From NCBI GenBank assembly GCA_023336815.1, contig JAMBLJ010000013.1, positions 7,055 through 71,054 on the forward strand: a DNA stretch of 64,000 bases, read 5' to 3'. Position numbers and translations under genes: made by a program. This document shows, piece after piece, positions 8,141 through 45,348 of this stretch (the first letter of the stretch is position 1; the number at the start of each line of letters is the position of its first letter). The DNA comes from Actinomycetes bacterium (GTDB lineage Bacteria; Actinomycetota; Acidimicrobiia; Spongiisociales; UBA5794). The notes beneath the pieces were generated by a model. It was given only the letters and a program-made list of their open reading frames with translations. It was not told the DNA's origin and did no database searches.

Positions 8141-8872
8141 GTGACACCCGAACGAGACACGACATCACAAGCGCCACTGGATGCGGCAACCGAACTGGAA
8201 GTGCTTGAGAAGTCCCTCCTCAGCTGTCGCGCGTGTCCCAGGCTTGTTGCCTGGAGGGAAGAGGTCGCCGTCACGAAGCGTGCTTCGTTCATCGACGATG
8301 ACTACTGGGGGAGACCTGTTCCAGGTTTCGGCGATCCATGGGCATCGATCGCTGTCATCGGTCTGGCTCCGGCAGCCCACGGTGCCAATCGAACGGGGCG
8401 TATGTTCACCGGTGATCGTTCGGGCGACTGGTTGTACAGGGCGATGTTCCGCGCGGGTCTTGCAAATCAGGCGGCATCCGTCTCAGCAGATGATGGTCTT
8501 GAACTCAATGGTGCGTGGGTGACGGCGCCGGTGCGTTGTGCCCCTCCAGAGAACAAACCGACCCCGGAGGAACGTTCGAACTGCGCAGCATGGTTCGATG
8601 CCGAGCTGGCTCTGTTGCCGAACGTGACTGTCTTCGTGGTGCTCGGACAGATCGGGTATCACGCCTTGTGGTCCCATCTGCACAGAACAGGCGAGGACCT
8701 ACCGAAGCCACGTCCAAAATTTGGTCATGGCCGAGAGGTCACTCTCGGTGATCGTTCCATCGTGATGAGCTATCACGTCTCCCAGCAGAACACGTTCACG
8801 GGTCGGTTGACGGAGGAGATGCTCGATGCCGTGTTCACGAGTGCGCTCAAGGCGGTCAGCGAGGTCCGGTGA
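8141..8872 (+). CDS. Uracil-DNA glycosylase, family 5 (UdgB-like)
   Basis: The CRACPRL Fe-S motif region and GLAPAAHGANRTGRMFTGD are characteristic of family 4/5 UDGs. Confidence 0.7.
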   Translation: MTPERDTTSQAPLDAATELEVLEKSLLSCRACPRLVAWREEVAVTKRASFIDDDYWGRPVPGFGDPWASIAVIGLAPAAHGANRTGRMFTGDRSGDWLYRAMFRAGLANQAASVSADDGLELNGAWVTAPVRCAPPENKPTPEERSNCAAWFDAELALLPNVTVFVVLGQIGYHALWSHLHRTGEDLPKPRPKFGHGREVTLGDRSIVMSYHVSQQNTFTGRLTEEMLDAVFTSALKAVSEVR

Positions 8873-9464
8873 AGAGGATCCATGGGACCAGCCTTCGGTC
8901 CAGTGCGTCCGTCAGGAGGGGGTAGGGGTTCTCTTTCGTGTCCTCGTGTTTGATCTCGAAATGCACGTTCGGCGTCGTATTTTCTGCGTTCCCCGAGTCG
9001 CCAACGTACCCGATCACATCACCAGCTGACACTTCCTGGCCCTCTACGAGTGTGGGAAAGAACGCTGTCCATGGTCCCCCTTCGCCGTCGTCGGTACCCA
9101 CGGTGTCGTTGTTCAGATGGAGATACGAAGAGATCCAACCATCCTTGTGTTCGACGACCAGGTAGTAGCCGGAGAGCCGGTGGAGGCCCATTTTCACAAT
9201 GGTGCCATCGGCCACTGCAACCACAGGCGTTCCTCGCTCGCTCACGATATCGGTGCCGCTGTGGCGTCTGCCGCCAGAGCGAGATGCTCCCCAGGTATCG
9301 GAGAACCTCACATTCGATGAATCGACGGGAAACGTTGCGAGGGCGAACCTCGCTTCCTCGTTCTCGGCGAGTGCTGGCTGGGGAAAGACGAGCGACTGAG
9401 CGCCCGCGGTAGCGATGAGTGCGGCTGCGATGAGCGCGCTGAAGCGCATGGTGTTGGTGCGCAT
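8856..9464 (-). CDS. Secreted M23 family metallopeptidase (LytM-like)
   Basis: Signal peptide MRTNTMRFSALIAAALIATAGA. HxGxD and HLH/HFE M23 motifs. Start at 9464 is preceded by GAGGAGG. Confidence 0.8.
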   Translation of the reverse strand: MRTNTMRFSALIAAALIATAGAQSLVFPQPALAENEEARFALATFPVDSSNVRFSDTWGASRSGGRRHSGTDIVSERGTPVVAVADGTIVKMGLHRLSGYYLVVEHKDGWISSYLHLNNDTVGTDDGEGGPWTAFFPTLVEGQEVSAGDVIGYVGDSGNAENTTPNVHFEIKHEDTKENPYPLLTDALDRRLVPWILFTGPR

Positions 9465-9641
9465 GGATCTTGACCTCCTCGGGCAACGGGTCCTACCGGG
9501 CTGCCTCGATCGTGATGTCGATGGGAACGGTAGGTGAGGTACTCGTTTACCTTCACTGAGATACACACACGGCCATGGTGGAAACCGGTCGATTGCTTGC
9601 AGGGCAGGGGTATCCTGACCCCGAACTCACGAAGGACTGTT

Positions 9642-10835
9642 GTGCCCCCCACACTCACTGGTTCCAACGACGCCGCCTGGATGGCGAAGAAGCGGACCGC
9701 TGCTCTGGAACTGTTGCCGACCCTTGCGATGCCATCGGAGCGCGAGGAGAACTGGCGCTATCTTGACCTCTCGTTCGATCCAGATCTTGACTCTGCGCCA
9801 TCCACACCGGGTGTTGCCTCGAGCGATGCGATCGTTGCTGGTTGGCATGGCACCGTCGTCACAATCGTTGACGGGTTCATCGTCACCGACGGCGTGCAAT
9901 CGATCGGTGAACGTAACGAGGAAACGGTCTCCGTCGATGGAGACGACCTCTTCTCCACCGCCTTCGTCGCGTACGCTCCTGGCACAGCGTATCTCGGCAA
10001 GGAGCTCCTGACGCAGCCCGTCTTTGTTGACATACAATCCACCTCGACGGCAACCACATTTCCAGGGGTACACGTAGATGTTGCGCCAGGAAGTGATGCA
10101 ACAGTTGTCGTGCGAATGTCCTCCAACTCGGATCAGCCAGCCGTGACGGTGCCAAGGGTGACAGCGAACGTCGGTGACAACGCACGACTCACGCTGAGCA
10201 TCATCCAGGACTGGAACTATGCAACACGTGCGATCGGTCGATGTACGATCCGTCTCGGTCGCGACTCTGGTCTTGCTTTTAGCGAGATCGGACTCGGCGG
10301 CAAGGTTGGGCGGCTTCATCTTGATGTTGACTACATCGGTGATGGTTCGCACGCCAAGATATACGGTGCGTATTTTGGTGAAGGAAACCAGACGCTGGAC
10401 TACCGGTACTTCATGAACCATATCGGCACGAATACTCGCGCCGATATGTTCCTCAAGGGAGCCGTTGCTGACACGGCGCTCTCAGTATTCACCGGCATGA
10501 TCCGCATCGAAGAAACTGGCCAACGGACGGAGTCCTTCGAGACCAACCGGAACTTGATCCTGTCTGAGGGCGCAGCTGCCCAATCGGTTCCCAATCTCGA
10601 GATTCTCAACAACGACGTCAAGTGCGGTCACGGCTCAAGCATCGGACCTCTTGACGAGGATCAGCGCTACTACTTGATGTCCCGAGGACTGACGCCCGAG
10701 CACGCCGATCGCCTGCAGGTTCACGGATTTTTCGAAGAGGTCGTTGAACAGATCCCAGATGAACACGTCGCGGCATGGGCTCGTGAGCGGATCAACAACA
10801 AGTACATCGTTGCTCAGCAAGAGGGCAGAGTATGA
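9642..10835 (+). CDS. sufD: Fe-S cluster assembly protein SufD (SufB/SufD family, SufD by length of about 398 aa)
   Basis: C-terminal VKCGHGSSIGPLDEDQRYYLMSRG motif. GTG start at 9642 is preceded by GAAGGA. Followed by Rieske and sufC genes, as in actinomycete suf operons. Confidence 0.75.
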   Translation: MPPTLTGSNDAAWMAKKRTAALELLPTLAMPSEREENWRYLDLSFDPDLDSAPSTPGVASSDAIVAGWHGTVVTIVDGFIVTDGVQSIGERNEETVSVDGDDLFSTAFVAYAPGTAYLGKELLTQPVFVDIQSTSTATTFPGVHVDVAPGSDATVVVRMSSNSDQPAVTVPRVTANVGDNARLTLSIIQDWNYATRAIGRCTIRLGRDSGLAFSEIGLGGKVGRLHLDVDYIGDGSHAKIYGAYFGEGNQTLDYRYFMNHIGTNTRADMFLKGAVADTALSVFTGMIRIEETGQRTESFETNRNLILSEGAAAQSVPNLEILNNDVKCGHGSSIGPLDEDQRYYLMSRGLTPEHADRLQVHGFFEEVVEQIPDEHVAAWARERINNKYIVAQQEGRV

Positions 10836-11158
10836 GCGATATCAACGTTGGTCCGGTTGAGGGATTCTCTTCCGACGCTGGCACGGTCGTCGACGTCGGA
10901 GGGACAGCGGTTGCGGTGTTCTGCATCGATAACGCCGTGTACGCGATTGCAGATCGATGTTCTCACGCCGAAGCGTCGCTCAGCGAAGGCGATGTCTTCG
11001 ATGGAGAGATCGAATGTCCAAGGCACGGTGCATCGTTCGATATCCAGAGCGGTGCGGCGCTGACATTGCCAGCCACCCAACCCGTACGGACGTATACAAC
11101 TCATGTCCGGAACGGCGATCTGTACATCACCAGCAACTCCAGCGAGGATGATCGATGA
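10832..11158 (+). CDS. Rieske (2Fe-2S) domain protein (ferredoxin subunit type)
   Basis: CSH ... CPRHG Rieske motifs. ATGA overlaps with both the sufD stop and the sufC start. Confidence 0.85.
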   Translation: MSDINVGPVEGFSSDAGTVVDVGGTAVAVFCIDNAVYAIADRCSHAEASLSEGDVFDGEIECPRHGASFDIQSGAALTLPATQPVRTYTTHVRNGDLYITSNSSEDDR

Positions 11159-11886
11159 GCTACGCACTTGAAGTACGCAACTTGCGAGCTCGGATCGGTG
11201 ATCTCGAGATCCTCACCGGTGTGGATCTTACGGTTCCATTCGGTGAGGTCCACGCTGTCATGGGTCCCAACGGGTCCGGCAAGTCAACCTTGAGCCACGT
11301 ACTGATGGGCAAGAGCGACTACAACGTCGAGGGCGACGCCTTCATCGACGGTGTCGACCTGTCAGGGATGACCGTGGATCAAAGGGCGCGAGCAGGTCTC
11401 TTCGAGGCGTTCCAGTACCCGATCGAGGTTCCTGGCGTCTCCCTCGATCTCCTTACGACGGCCATGGCAGAGAGCAACCCGGAGGATCCAGGATTCGGTG
11501 GTCGGATCGCGGCGACGTCGGAGCGTCTCTCGATGGAGCCGTTCAGATCACGGGCCCTCAACGTCGGTCTTTCTGGCGGCGAGAAGAAGCGATCTGAGAT
11601 GTATCTTCTTGGTGTGGCCAACCCAAAGGTCGCGATCCTTGACGAGATCGACTCTGGTCTCGACATCGATGCGGTACGAGAGGTCGCTGCGATGGTCGAA
11701 GCGTTGCGAAGCGAGGACCTCGGTGTTGTCATCATCACCCACTACAGCAGGATCCTGAGGTACATGTCGGTCGACAAGGTTCATGTCATGGTCGCGGGAA
11801 AGATCGTCAGATCCGGTGGTCCGGAGATCGCCGAAGAACTCGAAGGTTCGGGCTACACGGAATATCAGGTCGCAGCCGCTGGTTGA
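11155..11886 (+). CDS. sufC: Fe-S cluster assembly ATPase SufC (divergent paralog)
   Basis: GPNGSGKST Walker A and LSGGEKKR signature. SufC-length protein. Confidence 0.8.
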   Translation: MSYALEVRNLRARIGDLEILTGVDLTVPFGEVHAVMGPNGSGKSTLSHVLMGKSDYNVEGDAFIDGVDLSGMTVDQRARAGLFEAFQYPIEVPGVSLDLLTTAMAESNPEDPGFGGRIAATSERLSMEPFRSRALNVGLSGGEKKRSEMYLLGVANPKVAILDEIDSGLDIDAVREVAAMVEALRSEDLGVVIITHYSRILRYMSVDKVHVMVAGKIVRSGGPEIAEELEGSGYTEYQVAAAG

Positions 11887-18915: not shown

Positions 18916-20142
18916 TTACGACAGCCCGAAGATCTGTCTTGCCTTGAGGAGACCTTCAGCGAGGGCGTCGACCTCCTCAGGGACATTGTAGAGATAGAAC
19001 GATGCTCGGGCCGTTGCAGGAACACCGAGGTACTTCATCAGGGGTCTCGCGCAATGGTGACCCGCACGAACCGCGATCCCGTCCTGGTCGAGGATGGTGG
19101 CAATGTCATGGGCATGAATGTCTGCCAACTCGAAACTCACGGCCCCTCCTCGTTTGGTTGCGTCCTTGGGCCCATAGACGCGCAGATCGGGGATCTCGGA
19201 CAGTTTCTCGAGCGCATACGTGGTGAGGTCGCGCTCATGCGCAGCGATCACATCCATCCCGATGGCATCGAGATAGTCGACCGCGGCACCGAATCCGACA
19301 GCCTCTGCGATCGGTGGCGTTCCCGCTTCGAACTTGTGGGGGACGGGTGCCCAGGTTGACGTATGACGTTCAACGATGTTGATCATCTCACCACCACCCT
19401 CGGTTGGTTCCATCTCCTCAAGCCGCTCTGGTTTGCCCCACATTGCGCCGATTCCGGTTGGGCCGAGCATCTTGTGTGAGGAGAAGGCAAGGAAGTCGAC
19501 ATCGATCTGGTTCACGTCGACGGGCTGATGAGGTACGAGCTGTGCAGCGTCGAGCACGACGAGAGCGTCTACAGACCGGGCTGCCTGAGAGAGGACATCT
19601 ATGGGTCCGAGAGCGCCCGTTACGTTCGACATTCCAGAGAACGAGACGATCTTGATCCGGTCGTCGATCACGGACTCCAGTTCGCCGATATCCACTGTGT
19701 AGTCGTCGGTAAGTTCAAGGTAGACGAGCTCCGCTCCGGTATGCCTTGCGATTATCTGCCATGGGACGATGTTCGCGTGGTGCTCTGCGATCGTGACGAG
19801 GATCCGATCACCCTGTTTCAGGCGGTCGAGTCCCCAGCCGTACGCTATGTGGTTGATGGCGGTGGTTGTACCTCGTGTGAAGACGGTCTGTGCAGGGTCT
19901 GCTCCGATGAAGCGGGCGACCTTCGACCGAGCGCCTTCGTAGAGCTCCGTAGCTTCAGCCGCGAGGGTGTGGGCACCCCTGTGGACATTGGCATTCGAAG
20001 TTCGGTAGTACGCCTCCATCGCATCCAGAACAGCCACTGGCTTCTGCGTGGTGGCTGCTGAGTCGAGGTAGACGAGCGGGTGACCGTTGATGGAACGCGA
20101 GAGGATCGGGAAGTCCGAGCGCAGGCTCCGCAGGTCGGTCAC
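18916..20142 (-). CDS. sufS: Cysteine desulfurase SufS (class II aminotransferase)
   Basis: PLP lysine motif SSHKMLGPTGIG and C-terminal RAGHHCA active-site Cys. 408 aa. Confidence 0.9.
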   Translation of the reverse strand: MTDLRSLRSDFPILSRSINGHPLVYLDSAATTQKPVAVLDAMEAYYRTSNANVHRGAHTLAAEATELYEGARSKVARFIGADPAQTVFTRGTTTAINHIAYGWGLDRLKQGDRILVTIAEHHANIVPWQIIARHTGAELVYLELTDDYTVDIGELESVIDDRIKIVSFSGMSNVTGALGPIDVLSQAARSVDALVVLDAAQLVPHQPVDVNQIDVDFLAFSSHKMLGPTGIGAMWGKPERLEEMEPTEGGGEMINIVERHTSTWAPVPHKFEAGTPPIAEAVGFGAAVDYLDAIGMDVIAAHERDLTTYALEKLSEIPDLRVYGPKDATKRGGAVSFELADIHAHDIATILDQDGIAVRAGHHCARPLMKYLGVPATARASFYLYNVPEEVDALAEGLLKARQIFGLS

Positions 20143-20915
20143 CCAGAAACCGCTTCTGCCCGGTAGGCATCGTATCCGGTCTCTTCGATCCGGTCGGCAA
20201 GTGATGCCTCGCCGGATTCGACAATGGTTCCATCGAGGAACACATGGACGACATCTGGAGTGATGTAGTCCAACATCCGCTGATAGTGGGTGATGATCAG
20301 AAACCCACGCTCGTCGTTTCTGAGGCGTTCCACACCTTCAGCCACGATCTTGAGCGCATCGATATCGAGTCCTGAGTCGGTCTCGTCGAGGACGGCGAAG
20401 TCGGGTTCCAGCACCGCCATCTGGAGTACCTCATTGCGTTTTCGCTCACCACCCGAGAACCCCTCATTGAGATAACGGTCTGCGAACGACGAGTCCATGG
20501 CGAGTTCCTTCATCGCCTCCATCACCTTGAGTCGGAGTTCAAGCACCGTGTAGTCGGTACCCGTCCGGTTGGACAACGCGGCCCGAAGGAAGTTCACCAT
20601 CGATACACCCGGAATCTCCTCGGGGTACTGGAATCCGAGGAACATTCCTGCCTGACCGCGGGCCTCGGTCGCCATGTTGGTGATGTCCTCGCCCTTGTAC
20701 GTGATCGTTCCGCGCGTGACTTCGTAGCTCGGATGGCCGAGGAGAACGTTCGCAAGCGTTGACTTGCCGGATCCATTCGGACCCATGATCGCATGGGTTT
20801 CGCCGTGCGCGATTGTCAGGCTGACACCTTTGAGAATCTGAATGTCCTCGACGGATGCGTGGAGATCGTCGATCACGAGGAGGGGCTGGTCGGCAGGAGT
20901 TTGCAACATGGCCAT
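20139..20915 (-). CDS. sufC: Fe-S cluster assembly ATPase SufC (canonical copy)
   Basis: GPNGSGKST, FSGGERKR and ITHYQRML motifs. Confidence 0.9.
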   Translation of the reverse strand: MAMLQTPADQPLLVIDDLHASVEDIQILKGVSLTIAHGETHAIMGPNGSGKSTLANVLLGHPSYEVTRGTITYKGEDITNMATEARGQAGMFLGFQYPEEIPGVSMVNFLRAALSNRTGTDYTVLELRLKVMEAMKELAMDSSFADRYLNEGFSGGERKRNEVLQMAVLEPDFAVLDETDSGLDIDALKIVAEGVERLRNDERGFLIITHYQRMLDYITPDVVHVFLDGTIVESGEASLADRIEETGYDAYRAEAVSG

Positions 20916-24881: not shown

Positions 24882-25088
24882 TTGATGGCACGGCTTTCGA
24901 GATTCGAAGAGCACCGGTACGTTGGAACACGCGACGATATGCGGGTGTACGACTGCGACGATGACGACCAGTTCGTTGAACTATCCGAACGGGTAGCCGA
25001 AGAGAGACTCGTCGAGGCGAAGATGTTGCAAACCTTCGCTCCAGACTCGATATCGGATGCACGAAACCGCGGTTTTCGGCCCTTCTGA
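24882..25088 (+). CDS. Small acidic hypothetical protein (68 aa)
   Basis: The ORF fills a gap between genes. No homology recognised. Confidence 0.2.
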   Translation: MMARLSRFEEHRYVGTRDDMRVYDCDDDDQFVELSERVAEERLVEAKMLQTFAPDSISDARNRGFRPF

Positions 25089-25091
25089 CTC

Positions 25092-25712
25092 CTAGGAGTG
25101 TTGGACCATCGTGACGACATCGTCGGCGAGTTTGTCGCGTTTGTTCACGAAGAAATGGTCACTCGACGGGTACGTCTGTATACGTGCACCGATGCTCGCG
25201 GCGTATTCTCGGAGTGCGTCGACGTCAACGAACTGGTCCCGCACCCCCACCACGAACGATCGATTCCCTTGAACGAGCTCTGCCGGTGCAGGGAGTGGCG
25301 GTGAGAGGATGCCGTCCACGGGGGGAGCGATCCCGACGTAGGAGAGATCCGATCCGCTCATCGCTTGCCAGCGAAGTGCCGTTGAGGCACCGAAGGACCA
25401 TCCACAGAGTGCCAACGGATCGCTGCCCGACGATCGCACGAAGTCGATCGCCGCGCCGACGTCGAGCATCTCTCCCTCTCCATAGTCATACGAACCTGTC
25501 GATGAACCGACACCCCGGAAGTTGAACCTCAGAACCGACAGCCCGCCTATGAGGGCGCGTTTCTTGATGGCGTGAAGAATCGGGGTCCGCATGGTACCGC
25601 CGTGCTGAGGGTGAGGGTGACACAGCACCAGCGTGCCGCTCGAGTCGCTCGCATGTTCGTGGATCCCTTCGAGTTCGATGCCGTCCGGGGTCGGGATCGT
25701 GACGGATGTCAC
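25092..25712 (-). CDS. Alpha/beta-fold hydrolase
   Basis: GWSFG nucleophile-elbow motif. 206 aa. Confidence 0.75.
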   Translation of the reverse strand: MTSVTIPTPDGIELEGIHEHASDSSGTLVLCHPHPQHGGTMRTPILHAIKKRALIGGLSVLRFNFRGVGSSTGSYDYGEGEMLDVGAAIDFVRSSGSDPLALCGWSFGASTALRWQAMSGSDLSYVGIAPPVDGILSPPLPAPAELVQGNRSFVVGVRDQFVDVDALREYAASIGARIQTYPSSDHFFVNKRDKLADDVVTMVQHS

Positions 25713-25881
25713 AGCGTCGAGAACCAGATTGCAGTTGCGGCAAGGATGATCAGACCCGCCGCGAGCGACGCCAGGATGAGATAGCGAGTTTGCACGTCGG
25801 AATCGTATCGATCCTGCGGAGCGAGCGACCCGCAGGCGGCTAAACTTTCGTCATCTATCGATCTCTGGAGTCAGACGGTCT

Positions 25882-27255
25882 ATGTATGACATCGCCATCA
25901 TCGGTGGGGGACCGGGCGGATACGCCTCGGCCCTCTACGCCCACAATTTCGGTCTATCCGTCGCGTTGATCGAGAAGGATCGCGTCGGTGGCACGTGCCT
26001 TCTGCGGGGATGTATCCCGGCAAAGACATGGATCGAGTCCTCTCATGTGTTCGCCACCGTTGCCGGCGCTGCTGAATTCGGCGTGCAATCCTCAGCACCG
26101 GAGTTCGTCTGGCCAACAGCTCTTGAGCGCAAGAAGAAGGTCGTCGAACTGCTTGTAAACGGGCTCTCCGGAACGCTCAAGGCGCGAGGCGTCGACGTGA
26201 TCGAAGGTCACGGCCGTATCACCGGTGTGGGTACGGTCTCCGTCGAGGCATCCGATGGGTCGGTGTCCGACGTCGAGGCTCGGAATATCATCATCGCAAC
26301 AGGCTCGGGACCAGCGACGATCCCCGGCTACGAGATCGACGGCACCAACATCGTGACCTCCGACGAAGCGCTTGACTGGTCGACGCAGCCGCGCCGCGTG
26401 GCGATCATCGGTGGGGGCGTGATCGGGGTCGAGTTCGCATCATTCCTCGGCGAGCTCGGGAGCGAGGTCCACATCTTCGAGATGCTTGACCAACTTGTAC
26501 CTGGAATGGAGCCGGAGGCGGCGAAGATTCTTGCGAGATCCTTCCGGCGTCGGTCGATCAAGGCCCACACGGGTGTCGGGGTTGGTCCTGCCCGTATAGG
26601 AGAAGACTCGGTGACTGTGCCCTTCGGCGACGATTCCGTCGAAGTCGATGTCGTGCTCGTAGCGGTGGGTCGTACACCGATCACCTCAGACGTAGGTCTA
26701 GCCGCGGTTGGAGTCCACAGCGATCGCGGTTTCATTTCCGTCGATGCTGCCACGATGCGCACTACCGCCGAGGGCGTGTACGCCGTGGGTGACGTCGTTG
26801 CAGGGACACCCCAACTGGCCCATGTCGGATTCGCTGAGGCCATTGCAGCGGTTACGCACATCGCGACCGGTGATAGTGCCGCTGTGGACTACAACGCGAT
26901 CCCCATGGTTGTGTACACGAATCCCGAGATCGGATGGGTCGGACTTACCGAGGCTGCCGCGGTCGAGAGCGGTGTATCGATCGAGACGGCGGAACATGGA
27001 ATGCGGGGGATCGGCAGAGCGATCATCCAGGGCGAGGTGGGAGGCACTGTGAAGATCGTATCGGAAACGGATGGCCCGATCGTCGGCGCAACGGTTGTCG
27101 GCCCCGGGGCCGGCGAACTGATTCATGAACTCATGTATGCAGTCGGATGGGAAGCACTTCCCGCTGAAGCTGCCTCCTTTATCCACGCACACCCAACGAT
27201 CGCCGAGGCGATCGGTGAGACTCTGCTCGCTTCGGCTGGCAAACCATTGCACTAG
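25882..27255 (+). CDS. lpd: Dihydrolipoyl dehydrogenase (E3)
   Basis: IIGGGPGGY FAD motif. GTCLLRGCIPAK redox-active disulfide. Confidence 0.9.
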   Translation: MYDIAIIGGGPGGYASALYAHNFGLSVALIEKDRVGGTCLLRGCIPAKTWIESSHVFATVAGAAEFGVQSSAPEFVWPTALERKKKVVELLVNGLSGTLKARGVDVIEGHGRITGVGTVSVEASDGSVSDVEARNIIIATGSGPATIPGYEIDGTNIVTSDEALDWSTQPRRVAIIGGGVIGVEFASFLGELGSEVHIFEMLDQLVPGMEPEAAKILARSFRRRSIKAHTGVGVGPARIGEDSVTVPFGDDSVEVDVVLVAVGRTPITSDVGLAAVGVHSDRGFISVDAATMRTTAEGVYAVGDVVAGTPQLAHVGFAEAIAAVTHIATGDSAAVDYNAIPMVVYTNPEIGWVGLTEAAAVESGVSIETAEHGMRGIGRAIIQGEVGGTVKIVSETDGPIVGATVVGPGAGELIHELMYAVGWEALPAEAASFIHAHPTIAEAIGETLLASAGKPLH

Positions 27256-27310
27256 ACAACGAACCGCGAACAGAACGTTTCTCCATACGAGCGTTACAAG
27301 GAGCACACAG

Positions 27311-28660
27311 ATGGCTTTCACGATCACGATGCCTCAGCTTGGCGAGACGGTCACAGAGGGGACCATCCTTGCCTGGGTGAAGCAGATCGGCGAGTACGTC
27401 GCTGAGGACGACATCCTCGTGGAATTGTCGACCGACAAGGTCGATACCGAAATCCCGTCGCCAGCCTCCGGTGTTCTCGTTGAGATCCTCGTTCCGGCAG
27501 GTACAACCGTTGAGGTGGGAACGCCTTTGGCGATTCTGGATGACGATGGTCAGACTGCAACAGAAGATCGGTCGACAGTTGACAGCCAACAGCCACCAGC
27601 AGAAGAGCAGTTGACAGTTGACAGCCGGCAGCCGACAGCCGGAGATCATCCAGCAGTCGAGACAACGGTGTCGCCGGCTTCGAGTGTTCAACAGGTCAGC
27701 GCAGAGAAGACGGCAAGACGCGGGGTGCTGTCGCCGGTGGTACGCAAGCTCGCGGCGGAACACAACATTGATGTAGCGATGGTTCCTGGCACCGGTGATG
27801 GTGGAAGGATCACCCGAAAGGACATCGAGGCGTTCATCGCCGCCCGGCGTGTTTCCCCTGCGCCCGATGCAACTCAAACCTCAGCCACACCGGCATCGGT
27901 CGTCCGGCCATCGGCACCTCGTCCTTCAGACTCGGTACGGCCTGGAGACGTCCGTGAGATCCCACGACTCCGAGCGCGGATCGCCGAGAATCTCGTGCAG
28001 GCGAAGCAGTCGGCAGCCCATGTATGGACATCGGTTGAGGTCGACTACGAACGTGTCGCATCCGTGAGGGCGAGACACGGCGACACGTTCAAGACGTCTG
28101 AAGGTTTCTCGCTCACGTACCTGCCCTTCATTGCGAGGGCAACGATGGACGCCCTCGCAGCGTACCCCGCAGTGTATTCGCTATTCGATATCGGGGCCGG
28201 AACCCAGTCGTTTCCACGAGACGTACACCTCGGGATCGCTGTTGATCTTGACCAGGCCGGTCTTGTTGTTGCGAACGTGAGGAACGCAGATTCCATGACA
28301 CTTAAGGGTCTTGCCAGGGCGATTCGTTCCGTGGCTACCGATGCTCGTGCCGGGAATCTGGGACCTGACGATCTCGCTGGATTCTCTTTCTCGATCACCA
28401 ATCCTGGACCGTTCGGGTCATTCATGAGCGTCCCGATCATCCCGTCTCCCACCGCCGCCATCCTCAGCACGGACACCGTGGTGAAGAAGCCGGTTGTCGT
28501 GGAGCTCCCGGACGGGTCCGATGGTCTTGCGATCCACCACATTGGATATCTCGGGTTGAGCTGGGACCACCGTGTCTTCGACGGTTCGACGGCCGTGCTG
28601 TTTCTCAAGCGGATCAAGGAGAATCTCGAGACCTGGGACTGGGAGCAAGAGCTGTCGTGA
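27311..28660 (+). CDS. Dihydrolipoamide acyltransferase E2 component (lipoyl domain + E3-binding + catalytic domain)
   Basis: Lipoyl-lysine motif TDKVDTEIPSP and catalytic DHRVFDG. Start at the ATG preceded by AAGGAG (27311); the upstream ORF extension is non-homologous. Confidence 0.85.
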   Translation: MAFTITMPQLGETVTEGTILAWVKQIGEYVAEDDILVELSTDKVDTEIPSPASGVLVEILVPAGTTVEVGTPLAILDDDGQTATEDRSTVDSQQPPAEEQLTVDSRQPTAGDHPAVETTVSPASSVQQVSAEKTARRGVLSPVVRKLAAEHNIDVAMVPGTGDGGRITRKDIEAFIAARRVSPAPDATQTSATPASVVRPSAPRPSDSVRPGDVREIPRLRARIAENLVQAKQSAAHVWTSVEVDYERVASVRARHGDTFKTSEGFSLTYLPFIARATMDALAAYPAVYSLFDIGAGTQSFPRDVHLGIAVDLDQAGLVVANVRNADSMTLKGLARAIRSVATDARAGNLGPDDLAGFSFSITNPGPFGSFMSVPIIPSPTAAILSTDTVVKKPVVVELPDGSDGLAIHHIGYLGLSWDHRVFDGSTAVLFLKRIKENLETWDWEQELS

Positions 28661-30315
28661 CGCTCGCGGTTACCAAGACCTTGCGGACACGGTGGCTTGG
28701 TCGCGTGACGTACGAGGAAGCGTGGGATCTCCAGAAGGCGATCTGGGAAGGTCGAACATCCGGCCGTACCGAAGACGACTATGTGCTGCTTCTCGAACAC
28801 CCCCACACCTACACCATTGGGCGTAATGGCGACGGCTCGAACCTGAAGATATCCGACGCCCGGCTGTCGGGTATCGGTGCGATCGTCCGTGAGGTCGACA
28901 GGGGCGGTGACATCACGTACCACGGACCAGGGCAACTTGTTGGATACCCGATCGTGGCGATCCCGGATATCGAAGGTGGATTCGACGCGGTCGGTCACGT
29001 GCGACGGATCGAGGAGGTGCTCGTTGCAACGCTTGCAGATCTTGGTATCGATGCGTGGGTGGAGACGGGATACACAGGTGTGTGGACCGGGGCGGGGAAG
29101 GTCGCAGCGATCGGCGTACGGGTGTCGAGGGGCGTATCGACCCACGGATTCGCACTCAACATCGACCCTGACATGACGTACTTCGGTCACATCGTTCCCT
29201 GTGGCATCACCGACAGAGCGGTTACGTCCGTATCCGAGATATTGGGTCGCACGATCTCGATCGAAGAGATCGTCGATCTGCTCGTTCCCCATCTCGAAGC
29301 TCTGTCGGTTAGCGACGATAATGAGATCCAACTTGGTGCGTTCTCTCGAGGAACGGGTCGGTCGAGCTATGAGGTCGATCGGATGGTCGATGACGGTGTG
29401 TTCAGTCCCAGGACGGCGACCGATGTACCTCTCATGATCAGGGGTCTCCTCGCTGGCGAGCCCGAGAAGCCGGACTGGATGAAGGTCCGCATCGACTTGC
29501 GCGATCCGAAGTTCAAGGAGCTGAAGAAGCTCAACAGTGAACTCGGTCTCAACACGGTATGTGAAGAGGCTGGCTGTCCAAACATATACGAGTGCTGGTC
29601 ATCCGGTACATCCACGCTGATGTTGCTTGGTGAGACGTGTACCCGTGCATGTTCGTTCTGCGACGTCAACACGGGCAAACCCGGAGCTGTTGACGAGGAC
29701 GAGCCGATGCGCGCTGCAGAGGCGATCGCAGCGATGCGTCTCAATCATGCCGTTCTGACATCGGTCAACCGGGATGATCTCGACGACGGGGGCGCGACGA
29801 TCTTCGCTCGCACGATTCACGAGATACAGGAGCGACTCCCAGACTGCGATGTCGAGGTGCTCATCCCGGACTTCAAAGGCGAGCTGGTCCCACTCGAGAT
29901 CGTCCTCGGTGCGAAGCCATCCGTCCTGAACCACAATACGGAGACGGTGCTTCGCCTCCAGCGTGAGATCAGGACGGGTGCGAACTATGCCAGGTCTTTG
30001 ACGCTGCTCGCCAGGGCGAGGTGGGCGAATCCATCGTCGACGGTCAAGTCAGGACTCATCGTTGGCATGGGTGAGACGGATGAGGAGATCATCGGAGCAT
30101 TGGCAGATCTCAACGCAGTTGGCGTGAACGTGGTGACGATCGGTCAGTATCTCAGACCAACGGCTCACCATCGCAAGGTCCACAGGTATGTACAACCGTA
30201 TGTATTCGATGACTACAAGATCGCAGGTGAGTCGTTCGGTCTGGCACATGTTGAGTCCGGCCCGCTGGTGAGAAGCTCGTACCACGCACGTGAAGCACTC
30301 GAGGCGGCTGTGTGA
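28657..30315 (+). CDS. lipB/lipA: LipB-LipA fusion ORF: octanoyltransferase (aa 1-225) fused in frame to lipoyl synthase (aa 243-552)
   Basis: LipB motifs: AGKVAAIG lysine and HIVPCGI cysteine. LipA motifs: CEEAGCPNIYEC and radical-SAM CTRACSFC. One continuous 552-aa ORF. Internal ATG at 29383 with GAGG upstream. Confidence 0.8.
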   Translation: MTLAVTKTLRTRWLGRVTYEEAWDLQKAIWEGRTSGRTEDDYVLLLEHPHTYTIGRNGDGSNLKISDARLSGIGAIVREVDRGGDITYHGPGQLVGYPIVAIPDIEGGFDAVGHVRRIEEVLVATLADLGIDAWVETGYTGVWTGAGKVAAIGVRVSRGVSTHGFALNIDPDMTYFGHIVPCGITDRAVTSVSEILGRTISIEEIVDLLVPHLEALSVSDDNEIQLGAFSRGTGRSSYEVDRMVDDGVFSPRTATDVPLMIRGLLAGEPEKPDWMKVRIDLRDPKFKELKKLNSELGLNTVCEEAGCPNIYECWSSGTSTLMLLGETCTRACSFCDVNTGKPGAVDEDEPMRAAEAIAAMRLNHAVLTSVNRDDLDDGGATIFARTIHEIQERLPDCDVEVLIPDFKGELVPLEIVLGAKPSVLNHNTETVLRLQREIRTGANYARSLTLLARARWANPSSTVKSGLIVGMGETDEEIIGALADLNAVGVNVVTIGQYLRPTAHHRKVHRYVQPYVFDDYKIAGESFGLAHVESGPLVRSSYHAREALEAAV

Positions 30316-31400
30316 GCGACTTCTCCGATCGGATCGGCAACGTCAAGGCCGCAATGGCCGATCGGAATGTCGATGCCCTCTGTGTTTCGGTTGGTTCAGA
30401 CTTGCCCTACCTCACCGGATATCGCGCGATGCCGCTCGAGCGTGTGACGATGCTCGTCATTCCGTCGAACGGACGTCCTGTGCTCGTGGTTCCCGGTCTG
30501 GAAGCTCCACGGGTCGATGTTGTAGATGGTGCGTTCGATGTGTACGGCTGGGCAGAGTCAGATGACCCGATCGCCTATATCGATCAGCTTCTGCACGGTG
30601 CAACATCGGTTGCGATGGGAGACGAGACGTGGTCGCGCTTCGTCCTACAACTCCAGGAGCGGAACACCGCACGCGACTTCACTCCCGCAAGCGAACTGAT
30701 GGCGGCTTTGCGCATCCGAAAATCGCCGCTAGAGATCGAAGCGTTGAGGAACGCAGCCCACACGGTCGATGCTGTTGTGGACGAGATGGCACAGGTTCGC
30801 TTCTCCGGCAGGACTGAGAGAGACGTGTCGCGTGAAGTGATCGATAGGACCATCGCCGGTGGACATGAGACCATGGACTTCTGGATTGTTGCGTCCGGTC
30901 CCAACGGGGCCTCTCCACATCACGAACCTGGAGATCGGGTGATCGAGTCCGGCGATGCAGTTGTCGTCGACTTCGGTGGATACCAGAACGGCTATTGCTC
31001 TGACACAACACGCATGTTCGTGGTCGACCGGCCTCCCCACGGTTTCGATGACGCGTTCGAGGTGCTCCAGGCGGCACAAGCGGCTGCTGTGGAGGCAGTT
31101 CGACCTGGTGTCACGGCAGCGTCGATCGATGCCGTGGCCAGGGACCTGATCGTCGAAGCCGGATACGGCGAGCTGTTCATTCACCGACTCGGGCACGGAA
31201 TCGGGATGGACACCCACGAGCATCCCTATCTCGTCGAAGGGAACGATCTGGTGATCGAACCTGGAATGGTCTTTTCGATCGAACCAGGCATCTATGTCCC
31301 TGACGACTGGGGGATGCGCATCGAGGACATCATTGCTGTCACGGACGACGGTGTTGAACGACTCAACCGTTCCGACCGGTCCTATCGAGTGGTTTCCTAA
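30312..31400 (+). CDS. M24 family Xaa-Pro aminopeptidase / metallopeptidase
   Basis: Pita-bread fold metal ligands (HRLGHGIG, EPGIY). Confidence 0.8.
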   Translation: MSDFSDRIGNVKAAMADRNVDALCVSVGSDLPYLTGYRAMPLERVTMLVIPSNGRPVLVVPGLEAPRVDVVDGAFDVYGWAESDDPIAYIDQLLHGATSVAMGDETWSRFVLQLQERNTARDFTPASELMAALRIRKSPLEIEALRNAAHTVDAVVDEMAQVRFSGRTERDVSREVIDRTIAGGHETMDFWIVASGPNGASPHHEPGDRVIESGDAVVVDFGGYQNGYCSDTTRMFVVDRPPHGFDDAFEVLQAAQAAAVEAVRPGVTAASIDAVARDLIVEAGYGELFIHRLGHGIGMDTHEHPYLVEGNDLVIEPGMVFSIEPGIYVPDDWGMRIEDIIAVTDDGVERLNRSDRSYRVVS

Positions 31401-31466
31401 AGGCTTCTGTCGTGCTGTCTTACGTTACGCCAGCATTCTGTTGTGAGATCCGCCAGAATGGGCTGC

Positions 31467-32096
31467 ATGGATGTCACCATCACCAAACTCGTACATGCGT
31501 GCCTGCTCATCGAGACAGAGGGTACGCGAGTCCTCGTCGACCCTGGAAGCTTCTCATGGCAGGATGAACGGCTCGATCTGGGCATGGTCGAGGGGGTTGA
31601 TCGCGTCTTGATAACACACGAACACGGCGACCACGTGTCCGTCCCGTTCGTCAAGGGGGTTCTGGAGCGGTCCAATAACGCCCAGATCGAGACCACACCT
31701 GCGCTTGCTGCGATGCTGGCGAGCGAGGACCTCGATGCTGTGACCACGGGCACGCCGCAGTTTGCAGCACCACACGAACGTCTCCCGATCGGACCCGGTC
31801 CTCAGAACACAGGTTTCCATGTAGGAGGGGTGCTCTCGCACCCGGGAGACAGCCACAGTTTCGCTGAGACGATGCCGATCCTGGCCATGCCCTTCATCTC
31901 ACCTTGGGGATCACTCACGATCGCAGTGGATCGTGTACGCCTGGTCAAACCGCGCTATGTGATCCCGATACACGACTGGTTCCTCAGCAATGATGGTGCG
32001 TCGTTCATGTATCGACTGGCAGCGACCGGACTGAGCGGTGATCCCATCGAGCTCGTCACGATCGATGACTTCACGAACGTGACGCTGTCCGTCTGA
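31467..32096 (+). CDS. MBL-fold metallo-hydrolase
   Basis: ITHEHGDH motif. Confidence 0.7.
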   Translation: MDVTITKLVHACLLIETEGTRVLVDPGSFSWQDERLDLGMVEGVDRVLITHEHGDHVSVPFVKGVLERSNNAQIETTPALAAMLASEDLDAVTTGTPQFAAPHERLPIGPGPQNTGFHVGGVLSHPGDSHSFAETMPILAMPFISPWGSLTIAVDRVRLVKPRYVIPIHDWFLSNDGASFMYRLAATGLSGDPIELVTIDDFTNVTLSV

Positions 32097-32198
32097 TCGA
32101 GGTCGGCGGCCGCCCGACTCGTAATCGTGTACGTGTGTGACCAGCTGACCGGGTCCTGATTCCTGCTGAACGGTACTCTGCGGGATTCAGGAGGTGCG

Positions 32199-34175
32199 AT
32201 GACCAACGAACAGCGCGCGGTTGATGCGATCAGGGTTCTCTCCATGGATGCGATCCAGAAGGCGAACTCCGGACATCCGGGAATGCCTATGGGTATGGCA
32301 GATATCGCATTCGTTATCTGGACCAAGTTTCTCAACGTTGATCCATCGGATCCAACGTGGCGGGACAGGGATAGGTTCATCGTTTCGAACGGTCACGGAT
32401 CGATGCTGCTCTACAGTCTGCTTCACTTTTCCGGGTTCGCCATCACGATGGAAGACATCGAACAGTTTCGACAATGGGGTTCCGAAACCCCAGGTCACCC
32501 CGAGTACAACCTCGCAGTCGGTATCGAGACAACGACGGGTCCCCTCGGACAGGGCTTCGGCACCGCCGTGGGTATGGCGATCGCTGAGGAACACCTCCGA
32601 TCGGTCCATGGCACGGACCTGACCGACCACACCACCTACGTGCTGTGCGGCGATGGCGATCTCATGGAGGGAGTGTCAGCGGAAGCCGCCTCGCTGGCAG
32701 GCCACCTCGGTCTCGGACGGTTGATCGTCTACTACGACGACAACTCGATCACGATCGATGGATCGACGAGCCTCGCCTTCACGGAAGACGTCCCGGCAAG
32801 GTTCGCCGCCTACGGATGGCAGACTATCTCCGTCGACGGACACGATCGCGATGCGATTGAAGGCGCAACGATCGAAGCGCGCGCCGATCACGACCATCCG
32901 ACGCTCATCGCCTGTAAGACCCACATCGGTTTTGGGGCACCGACGAAGGTGGATACGGCAGCAGCTCATGGGTCACCGCTTGGCGTAGAAGAGATCGCGG
33001 CGGCCAGAGAGACGATGGGATGGGATTTCCCACCATTCCAGATACCTGACGAGGTGTACTCGGCCTATCAGTCTGTCAGTGAACGAGGCAAACGAGTACA
33101 TGCCGCGTGGGCCGAGGGCGTCGAGACCGCCCGCATCGCTGACCCCGGCCGTGTCAGCTCCTGGGAGGAGATATGGGAGCCTGCGGATGTTGCACTTGAG
33201 GCCCCCGGCGCGGAACCAGGGTCGAAGATCGCGACACGAAAGCTCTCGGAGGTGGTCATCCAGCAACTCGCGGCATTGCGTCCCGATGTAGTCGGTGGTT
33301 CGGCGGATCTGGCCCCATCGACGAACACGGTTATCAAGGATTCAACAGATTTCTCTTCCAGTGACCGCACGGGACGCAACATGCGATACGGGATCCGCGA
33401 ACACGCCATGGGTGCGGCGGTGAACGGGATGACCCAACACGGTGGCGTCCGTGGTTTTGGCGCAACCTTCCTGACGTTCTCCGACTACATGCGACCCTCG
33501 GTCCGGCTTGCAGCGCTTATGGGTCTGGGCTCGATCTACGTGTGGACACACGACTCGGTCTTCCTTGGTGAGGATGGACCGACCCACCAGCCGATCGAGC
33601 ATGTGGCGAGTCTGCGTCTGATCCCTGGACTCGAAGTGCATCGCCCCGCTGATCCAACCGAGACCGCTGCGGCGTGGCAGCAGGCGATCAATCGTACCGA
33701 CGGACCATCTGCGATCATTCTCACGAGGCAGGGTCTCCCGGTCCCCGTGAGGCCACCTGCCATGTCCGACATTCTTCTGGGCGGCTATGTCCGAAGGGAG
33801 GGATCGGATGTTGTCCTCGTCGCAACCGGATCCGAGGTGCAGCTCGCTGAAGGGGCCGCGTCGATCCTCGCTGCGAACGGAGTTTCGGCGAGAGTCGTAT
33901 CGATGCCATGTGTCGAGATCTTCATGGTCCAGGAACCGGCGTACAGACGAAAGATTCTCGGACTCGACCTCCCTATATTCACGATCGAAGCGGGAACCAC
34001 GCTGGTGTGGAGGTCAATGACAGCCAACGGTGGCTGTGCGATCGGAATAGACCACTTTGGGGCATCAGCACCCGCCGATGACCTGGCCCTCCAGTACGGG
34101 CTCACCCCCGACGCGGTCGCGGCCGAGGTGCTTGGGCGAACACAGCACACGGAAAGCCGAGGAGACAACGAATGA
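32199..34175 (+). CDS. tkt: Transketolase
   Basis: SGHPGMPMGMA TPP-binding N-terminus. 658 aa. RBS AGGAGG. Confidence 0.95.
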   Translation: MTNEQRAVDAIRVLSMDAIQKANSGHPGMPMGMADIAFVIWTKFLNVDPSDPTWRDRDRFIVSNGHGSMLLYSLLHFSGFAITMEDIEQFRQWGSETPGHPEYNLAVGIETTTGPLGQGFGTAVGMAIAEEHLRSVHGTDLTDHTTYVLCGDGDLMEGVSAEAASLAGHLGLGRLIVYYDDNSITIDGSTSLAFTEDVPARFAAYGWQTISVDGHDRDAIEGATIEARADHDHPTLIACKTHIGFGAPTKVDTAAAHGSPLGVEEIAAARETMGWDFPPFQIPDEVYSAYQSVSERGKRVHAAWAEGVETARIADPGRVSSWEEIWEPADVALEAPGAEPGSKIATRKLSEVVIQQLAALRPDVVGGSADLAPSTNTVIKDSTDFSSSDRTGRNMRYGIREHAMGAAVNGMTQHGGVRGFGATFLTFSDYMRPSVRLAALMGLGSIYVWTHDSVFLGEDGPTHQPIEHVASLRLIPGLEVHRPADPTETAAAWQQAINRTDGPSAIILTRQGLPVPVRPPAMSDILLGGYVRREGSDVVLVATGSEVQLAEGAASILAANGVSARVVSMPCVEIFMVQEPAYRRKILGLDLPIFTIEAGTTLVWRSMTANGGCAIGIDHFGASAPADDLALQYGLTPDAVAAEVLGRTQHTESRGDNE

Positions 34176-45244: not shown

Positions 45245-45276
45245 CCGCAAAAGCCGGTATCACGCGAGGAGTCTTG

Positions 45277-45348
45277 TGCCCCAGGCAGGAATCGAACCTG
45301 CGCTCCCGGCTCCGGAGGCCAGTGCTCTATCCCCTGAGCTACTGGGGC
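45277..45348 (-). tRNA. tRNA-Arg (anticodon CCG)
   Basis: Cloverleaf folded by hand: acceptor GCCCCAG/CTGGGGC, anticodon loop CTCCGGA, T-loop TTCGATT. No encoded CCA. Confidence 0.75.

Follow-up and report, generated by a model that had tools for sequence, protein, structure and literature searches.

A conserved LipB-LipA gene fusion in Acidimicrobiia, probably encoding a bifunctional octanoyltransferase/lipoyl synthase

Pyruvate and 2-oxoglutarate dehydrogenases, like glycine cleavage, require lipoylation. The octanoyltransferase LipB and the lipoyl synthase LipA are known as separate proteins in Escherichia coli and Mycobacterium tuberculosis (Rv2217/Rv2218; PDB 1W66, 2QHS, 5EXI-5EXK, 4U0P). 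Here we describe a gene in which the two are joined in a single reading frame, located in a 64,000-nucleotide stretch of contig JAMBLJ010000013.1 (positions 7,055 to 71,054, assembly GCA_023336815.1; hereafter the window) from an Acidimicrobiia bacterium. The two halves belong to the same families as the separate enzymes and share their catalytic residues, with 42-48% identity and predicted folds that are alike (template modelling (TM) scores of 0.86-0.91 for LipB and 0.90-0.92 for LipA); they differ in being parts of one polypeptide, in which a conserved junction of about 50 residues connects them. We consider it very likely that this open reading frame (ORF) encodes a genuine, evolutionarily fixed bifunctional octanoyltransferase/lipoyl synthase.

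The only curated fusion family in NCBIfam is LplA_LipA_fuse (NF053790, lipoate--protein ligase/lipoyl synthase, 606 positions), which likewise places an LplA/LipB-fold attachment enzyme N-terminal to LipA. The window protein falls outside this family, scoring 349.9 against a cut-off of 800 and matching only model positions 332-605, the LipA half. In place of LplA it has a LipB equivalog as its N-terminal half, and it lacks the accessory domain found at the C terminus of LplA; LipB, unlike LplA, should use octanoyl-acyl carrier protein (octanoyl-ACP) and need no ATP. An LplA-LipA fusion of 615 residues was also seen among the database proteins (P0243, with LplA-B_cat, Lip_prot_lig_C and Radical_SAM domains). 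Reverse-order LipA-LipB fusions from public metagenomes (P0144, P0151, P0152, P0153, P0187 and P0192) carry the same two domains in one chain, but with the domain order inverted, a total length of 492-542 residues and junctions of only 7-20 residues; they are not close to the window protein (about 41-45% identity over LipA). The existence of both reverse-order and LplA-LipA fusions suggests that LipA has been fused to a lipoyl-attachment enzyme more than once. Domain-architecture databases list proteins with both octanoyltransferase and lipoyl synthase domains, so that the architecture is visible but uncharacterised. No structure or PDB sequence spanning both halves was present among the PDB matches, and no description of a natural LipB-LipA fusion was found in the literature searched, including a 2023 survey of prokaryotic lipoate assembly (PMC10332631), although such an absence is not proof.

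The fusion gene and its two halves

The fusion gene has the following features, with coordinates given in the window.

28657..30315 (+): lipB-lipA fusion gene of 552 codons, GTG start and TGA stop, with full-length fused homologues
28672..29301 (+): LipB octanoyltransferase domain, residues 6-215 (NCBIfam PRK14345, TIGR00214; Pfam LplA-B_cat)
29302..29463 (+): junction, residues 216-269, comprising a LipB C-terminal strand, a clade-conserved segment and a LipA N-terminal extension
29383..29385 (+): internal ATG (Met243), a possible non-conserved start, with GAGG at 29371-29374, 8 nucleotides upstream
29464..30306 (+): LipA lipoyl synthase domain, residues 270-550 (NCBIfam TIGR00510, NF004019; Pfam Radical_SAM)

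Inspection of the ORF list and of the DNA found no internal stop or frame break in this gene, the product of which would be a protein of 552 residues and roughly 60 kDa with LipB at its N terminus and LipA at its C terminus. The GTG start agrees with the called N termini of homologues; translation might instead begin at a TTG at 28681 (codon 9). The start codon (28657-28659) overlaps the TGA stop (28658-28660) of the upstream gene for the E2 dihydrolipoyl acyltransferase to form GTGA, and the stop of the fusion (TGA, 30313-30315) overlaps the GTG (30312) of the next gene, an M24 peptidase, in a second GTGA. E2, the fusion and the M24 peptidase gene thus form one translationally coupled string through two consecutive overlaps (28657-28660 and 30312-30315), and both four-nucleotide overlaps are identical in the close relatives L081 and L082.

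The LipB half scored above the NCBIfam cut-offs of two LipB equivalog models, PRK14345 (202.1 against 155, residues 6-215) and TIGR00214 (144.1 against 83.55), and Pfam LplA-B_cat matched residues 19-213. No Pfam match to Lip_prot_lig_C, the LplA C-terminal accessory domain, was found in the fusion protein. Lys148 (nucleotides 29098-29100) lies in AGKVAAIG, which fits the GKxAAxG pattern of LipB, and Cys182 (29200-29202) in the PCG motif of HIVPCGI; the two form the catalytic dyad. The LipA half likewise scored above the cut-offs of the lipA equivalog TIGR00510 (348.4 against 310.25, residues 270-550) and of NF004019 (383.6 against 203), with a Pfam Radical_SAM match at residues 324-483. It carries the auxiliary-cluster motif CX4CX5C as CEEAGCPNIYEC (Cys302/307/313, nucleotides 29560-29595), the radical-SAM motif CX3CX2C as CTRACSFC (Cys328/332/335, 29638-29661) and RSSY at residues 539-542 (30271-30282). 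In an alignment of 89 fused sequences ranging down to about 45% identity, Lys148, Cys182, R82-G83-G84, T87 and H89-G90-P91-G92-Q93 (RGGxxTxHGPGQ) of the LipB half are invariant, as are all six cluster cysteines and R539, S540, S541 and Y542 of the LipA half. An initial annotation, made from the sequence of the window, had described an uninterrupted 552-codon ORF coupled through GTGA to the E2 stop and containing a complete LipB with its catalytic Lys and Cys and a complete LipA with both Cys clusters. The ORF, the overlap, every motif it quoted and the completeness of both domains, judged by the curated cut-offs, are all borne out here.

An AlphaFold2 model of the window protein, built from the 89-sequence alignment, had a mean predicted local distance difference test (pLDDT) score of 89.7 and a predicted TM score (pTM) of 0.92. 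When this model was compared with known structures by Foldseek, the LipB half matched 2QHS (TM 0.91) and 1W66 (TM 0.86), and the LipA half matched M. tuberculosis LipA (5EXK) over about 286 residues with a root-mean-square deviation of 1.1-1.5 Å and a TM score of 0.90-0.92, the higher value being target-normalised. The N-terminal half is thus predicted to adopt a LipB fold lacking the accessory domain of LplA and the C-terminal half a LipA fold. Octanoyl-ACP:protein octanoyltransferase activity of the former and sulfur insertion into octanoyl-lysine by the latter would follow from family membership.

Distribution of the fusion and its junction

The best 120 matches to the window protein among 5.8 billion clustered proteins were all 536-562 residues long, contained both Pfam domains and covered 95-100% of the query at 74-86% identity. 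These matches came from NCBI, JGI, ENA and Logan assemblies, and their named sources were Acidimicrobiia or Actinomycetota. When a distant fused relative (P0126, 47% identical) served as the query of a second search, at least 120 more fused proteins of 515-656 residues were returned. A HMMER scan was exhaustive over 1.84 billion representatives clustered at 50% identity, and its best 150 matches were classified by architecture: LipB precedes LipA in 72, both halves being essentially complete in 47 of these, and the remainder comprised 7 with LipA followed by LipB, 67 with LipA only and 4 with LipB only. Among the "LipA-only" and "LipB-only" entries, many are fragments from contig ends or calls disrupted by frameshifts. 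Two database relatives, P0155 and P0161, are frameshifted or garbled part-way and appear as "LipB-only" or odd-length proteins, which cautions against counting unfused forms from metagenome gene calls. When 123 LipA domains taken from the 50%-identity representatives were placed in a neighbor-joining tree, fused and LipA-only sequences were interleaved, in what is a biased sample analysed by a weak method.

The initial annotation had proposed a comparison of orthologous loci. Among the 80 best loci in GTDB species-representative genomes, LipB and LipA signature motifs share one stop-free frame at 63, and a further 7 carry an ORF of fused length in which the LipB motif is a variant one. The fused loci are nearly all from Acidimicrobiia, including Acidimicrobiales, Microthrixaceae, Ilumatobacteraceae, Iamiaceae and others. 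We define here an uncurated fusion group of Acidimicrobiia, in which LipB is followed by LipA in one stop-free frame of about 500-590 residues adjoining E2; the window ORF has every one of these characters.

Residues 216-269 (about 54 residues) are covered by neither family profile, and M. tuberculosis LipB (1W66) aligns only to residue 206 and LipA (5EXI) only from residue 265. The connecting segment had been taken initially for an 18-residue linker; it is in fact a junction of about 50 residues, conserved within the clade. Residues E223, Q225-L-G-A-F229, R231-G232, E239, D241 and G247-V-F249 are invariant in the window's own clade, and the junction contains the motifs E223-x-QLGAF-x-RG232 (nucleotides 29323-29352) and [YF]E[VI]D-x-[MLR]-x3-GVF. 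The distance from the PCG motif to the first LipA Cys is 114-119 residues in this clade and 89-153 across the class. Most Acidimicrobiales junctions read VERQDVAW...DLSAFSRG...PVRLLGRLAAAGV, and others run almost directly from VAW into RKRPxWMRV; despite this variation in length and sequence between Acidimicrobiia subclades, the frame is kept throughout. The QLGAF/DLSxFSRG element had no counterpart in the unfused LipB tails of Dietzia, Nocardia, Rhodococcus, Arthrobacter, Microtetraspora, Chloroflexota and Balneolaceae. When LipB tails and LipA N termini were compared, only the LipA N-terminal "RKLLRLE...RKPxW" element had a plausible counterpart in unfused proteins.

Codon comparison with eight relatives gave ratios of non-synonymous to synonymous change (dN/dS) of 0.07-0.30 for the junction, 0.10-0.21 for LipB and 0.04-0.19 for LipA, values that are rough as synonymous sites are saturated. 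Non-synonymous change is clearly suppressed in all three segments, and purifying selection on the junction is comparable to that on the LipB domain. In the AlphaFold2 model the junction forms a strand (residues 221-225) directly after the last LipB helix, followed by helices at 229-232 and 239-245, with pLDDT of 55-81. A homologue with a short junction (P0333, 515 residues) retained the strand and its model also had a pTM of 0.92. Because this pTM is high for a two-domain chain, the model suggests that the two domains are packed in a compact body and not arranged as beads on a string.

Alternatives to a single bifunctional product

The internal ATG at Met243 raises the alternative that LipA is produced, chiefly or in addition, as a protein of its own, with the fusion being one of two products. 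An ATG with GAGG at a suitable spacing is present in the window and in the close relatives L001 and L081, and Met243 sits roughly where stand-alone actinobacterial LipA proteins begin. This start is, however, poorly kept in evolution: many relatives have Leu or Arg at the position of Met243, and of 65 fused genes 34 lack an ATG throughout the junction, while just 5 combine an ATG with a Shine-Dalgarno-like motif. The GAGG is itself dictated by conserved Glu-Val codons, and upstream of Met243 the sequence is conserved at the protein level. Given the frequent Leu or Arg, the genes lacking an ATG and the coding constraint on GAGG, a separate LipA does not appear to be a conserved product, and we regard this alternative as unlikely. 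Of the earlier observation that an ATG preceded by GAGG aligns with the normal LipA N terminus, the presence of these elements stands; a separate LipA start at this point finds no support as a conserved trait.

It is more improbable still that the fusion is a polyprotein from which proteolysis releases free LipB and LipA. Translational coupling links it to a downstream peptidase gene, which is no direct evidence for cleavage, and the AlphaFold2 model has a low-confidence loop at residues 231-235. Against this, the neighbouring gene encodes an M24 aminopeptidase and not an endoprotease, and it lies directly downstream of the fusion in only 25 of 57 fused loci. Junctions range from very short to more than 100 residues with no common cleavage motif, and a pTM this high favours two domains packed into one body.

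We give practically no credence to an assembly or sequencing artefact or a recent pseudo-fusion, in which a stop or frameshift was missed or recently lost and two proteins are made: well-studied Actinomycetota do carry separate lipB and lipA genes, and the garbled P0155 and P0161 show that errors occur at this locus in public assemblies, but the same uninterrupted architecture is found in hundreds of independent assemblies as well as at the species-representative loci, the junction is conserved with dN/dS well below 1, and the database errors seen split the fusion and do not create it. A sequencing error or a stop loss that is recent and private to this genome is excluded because the same fusion is common to many Acidimicrobiia genomes. 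The initial annotation had left a choice between a genuine bifunctional protein and a lipB that had lost its stop and reads through into lipA; as an artefact or recent lesion the second falls with the independent assemblies, and the first is favoured by the fused homologues, the 63 single-frame loci, the invariant catalytic residues and the dN/dS of the junction.

Several points weigh against a single bifunctional product. Given the ATG at Met243, with GAGG 8 nucleotides upstream, this organism could produce some LipA as a separate protein. For every member of the group, it is from sequence that both halves are deduced to be active in a single chain. The pTM is a prediction, and it derives from an alignment of fused sequences only; channelling between the two active sites is an idea suggested by that model. 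Overall, the fusion is real and conserved, and probably bifunctional.

As to origin, the initial annotation had stated that lipB and lipA are adjacent but separate in related genera, and we indeed observed adjacent, stop-separated genes in Dietzia, Nocardia, Rhodococcus, Arthrobacter and Microtetraspora. In L054 (Dietzia), L070 (Nocardia), L071, L074 (Rhodococcus) and L077 (Arthrobacter), lipA continues the frame of lipB and the lipB stop is the only one in between, in a sample biased by a tblastn ranking that favours in-frame pairs. A single point mutation in such a locus would yield the LipB-LipA architecture. Because several unfused actinobacteria have the lipB stop in frame with lipA, loss of this stop is a plausible and the most likely origin of the fusion; it would have been lost long ago, and the loss appears now to be fixed across many Acidimicrobiia genomes.

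Gene neighbourhood and proposed function

The genes flanking the fusion are as follows.

25882..27255 (+): E3 dihydrolipoyl dehydrogenase (lpdA), first gene of the cluster (Pfam Pyr_redox_2, Pyr_redox_dim)
27311..28660 (+): E2 dihydrolipoyl acyltransferase, 449 residues from the Met at 27311 (Pfam Biotin_lipoyl, E3_binding, 2-oxoacid_dh)
30312..31400 (+): M24 (Xaa-Pro type) peptidase (Pfam Creatinase_N, Peptidase_M24)

Of the 56 fused loci with enough flank, 47 have the E2 gene immediately before the fusion, and in 49 fused loci an E3 homologue precedes the fusion on the same strand. Given this conserved E3-E2-fusion order, the fusion is probably co-expressed with a substrate, E2, which has one lipoyl domain with its lipoyl-lysine in a DKV motif at 27437-27439. 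The LipB and LipA genes likewise adjoin an E2 gene in M. tuberculosis and other Actinomycetota. The M24 peptidase gene is presumably a co-transcribed neighbour, and its position does not imply a role in lipoylation.

The E2 ORF as listed is 511 residues long from an ATG at 27125 and overlaps the 3' end of E3 by 131 nucleotides; its real start is most likely Met63 at 27311 (MAFTITMPQLGE...), which gives a protein of 449 residues like the L081 orthologue. An antisense ORF of 428 residues at 28045-29331 (-) overlaps the 3' end of E2 and the LipB half, and probably arises as a side effect of the G+C-rich coding sequence that it faces. Downstream, the M24 peptidase gene and a metallo-beta-lactamase-fold gene are only 42 nucleotides apart in the window (31400-31443), and in L081 a DUF222 gene and an acyltransferase gene are inserted between them (8797-11247). 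No second copy of lipA or lipB was found within the window. A scan of 25000-32500 found no sigma-70-like promoter and only chance-level terminator-like matches, and is uninformative on an internal promoter. Rfam and tRNA scans found no RNA gene at the fusion locus; a tRNA-Arg (CCG) at 45276-45348 (-) was the only RNA gene that Rfam and ARAGORN found in the window. About 8 kb upstream on the reverse strand, a gene for a class-V, cysteine desulfurase-like aminotransferase (18916-20142) overlaps an ABC ATPase gene (20139-20915) by 4 nucleotides. We take this pair (18916-20915) to resemble SUF iron-sulfur assembly genes, and it could matter for supplying the sacrificial cluster of LipA.

We propose a two-step reaction, drawn in both steps from family membership. 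The LipB domain would load octanoyl from octanoyl-ACP onto Cys182 as a thioester and, with Lys148, transfer it to the lipoyl-lysine of E2; other lipoyl carriers would be served likewise. The LipA domain would then use the radical-SAM [4Fe-4S] cluster (Cys328/332/335) and radicals derived from S-adenosylmethionine (SAM) to insert sulfur at C6 and C8 of the protein-bound octanoyl group, drawing on the sacrificial auxiliary cluster, which would have Cys302/307/313 and a Ser of RSSY as ligands. The fusion would enforce a 1:1 stoichiometry and co-localisation of LipB and LipA, and packed domains might let the octanoylated lipoyl domain swing from the LipB to the LipA site without release. A more specific version of this proposal is possible but doubtful, namely that the two domains of the fusion form a rigid module for lipoyl assembly, that the junction (E-x-QLGAF-x-RG ... 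EVD-x-M-x3-GVF) makes up part of the LipB/LipA interface and that the E2 lipoyl domain is handed off directly.

Both halves are ordinary members of their families, and the fusion is a variant gene organisation of a textbook pathway with no new chemistry. Annotation pipelines name the fused proteins "lipoyl synthase", "lipoic acid synthetase" or "hypothetical protein", and LipB can therefore seem absent from metabolic reconstructions of Acidimicrobiia; a dedicated family model like LplA_LipA_fuse would remedy this. To our knowledge, the LipB-to-LipA hand-off of an octanoylated carrier domain has been neither seen nor understood structurally. With both enzymes in a single chain, the fusion is a convenient target for structural and kinetic work on this step and, if it does form a rigid module, would be a natural system in which to trap and visualise it. 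As a conserved natural fusion, it is strong "Rosetta-stone" evidence that LipB and LipA act in physical proximity.

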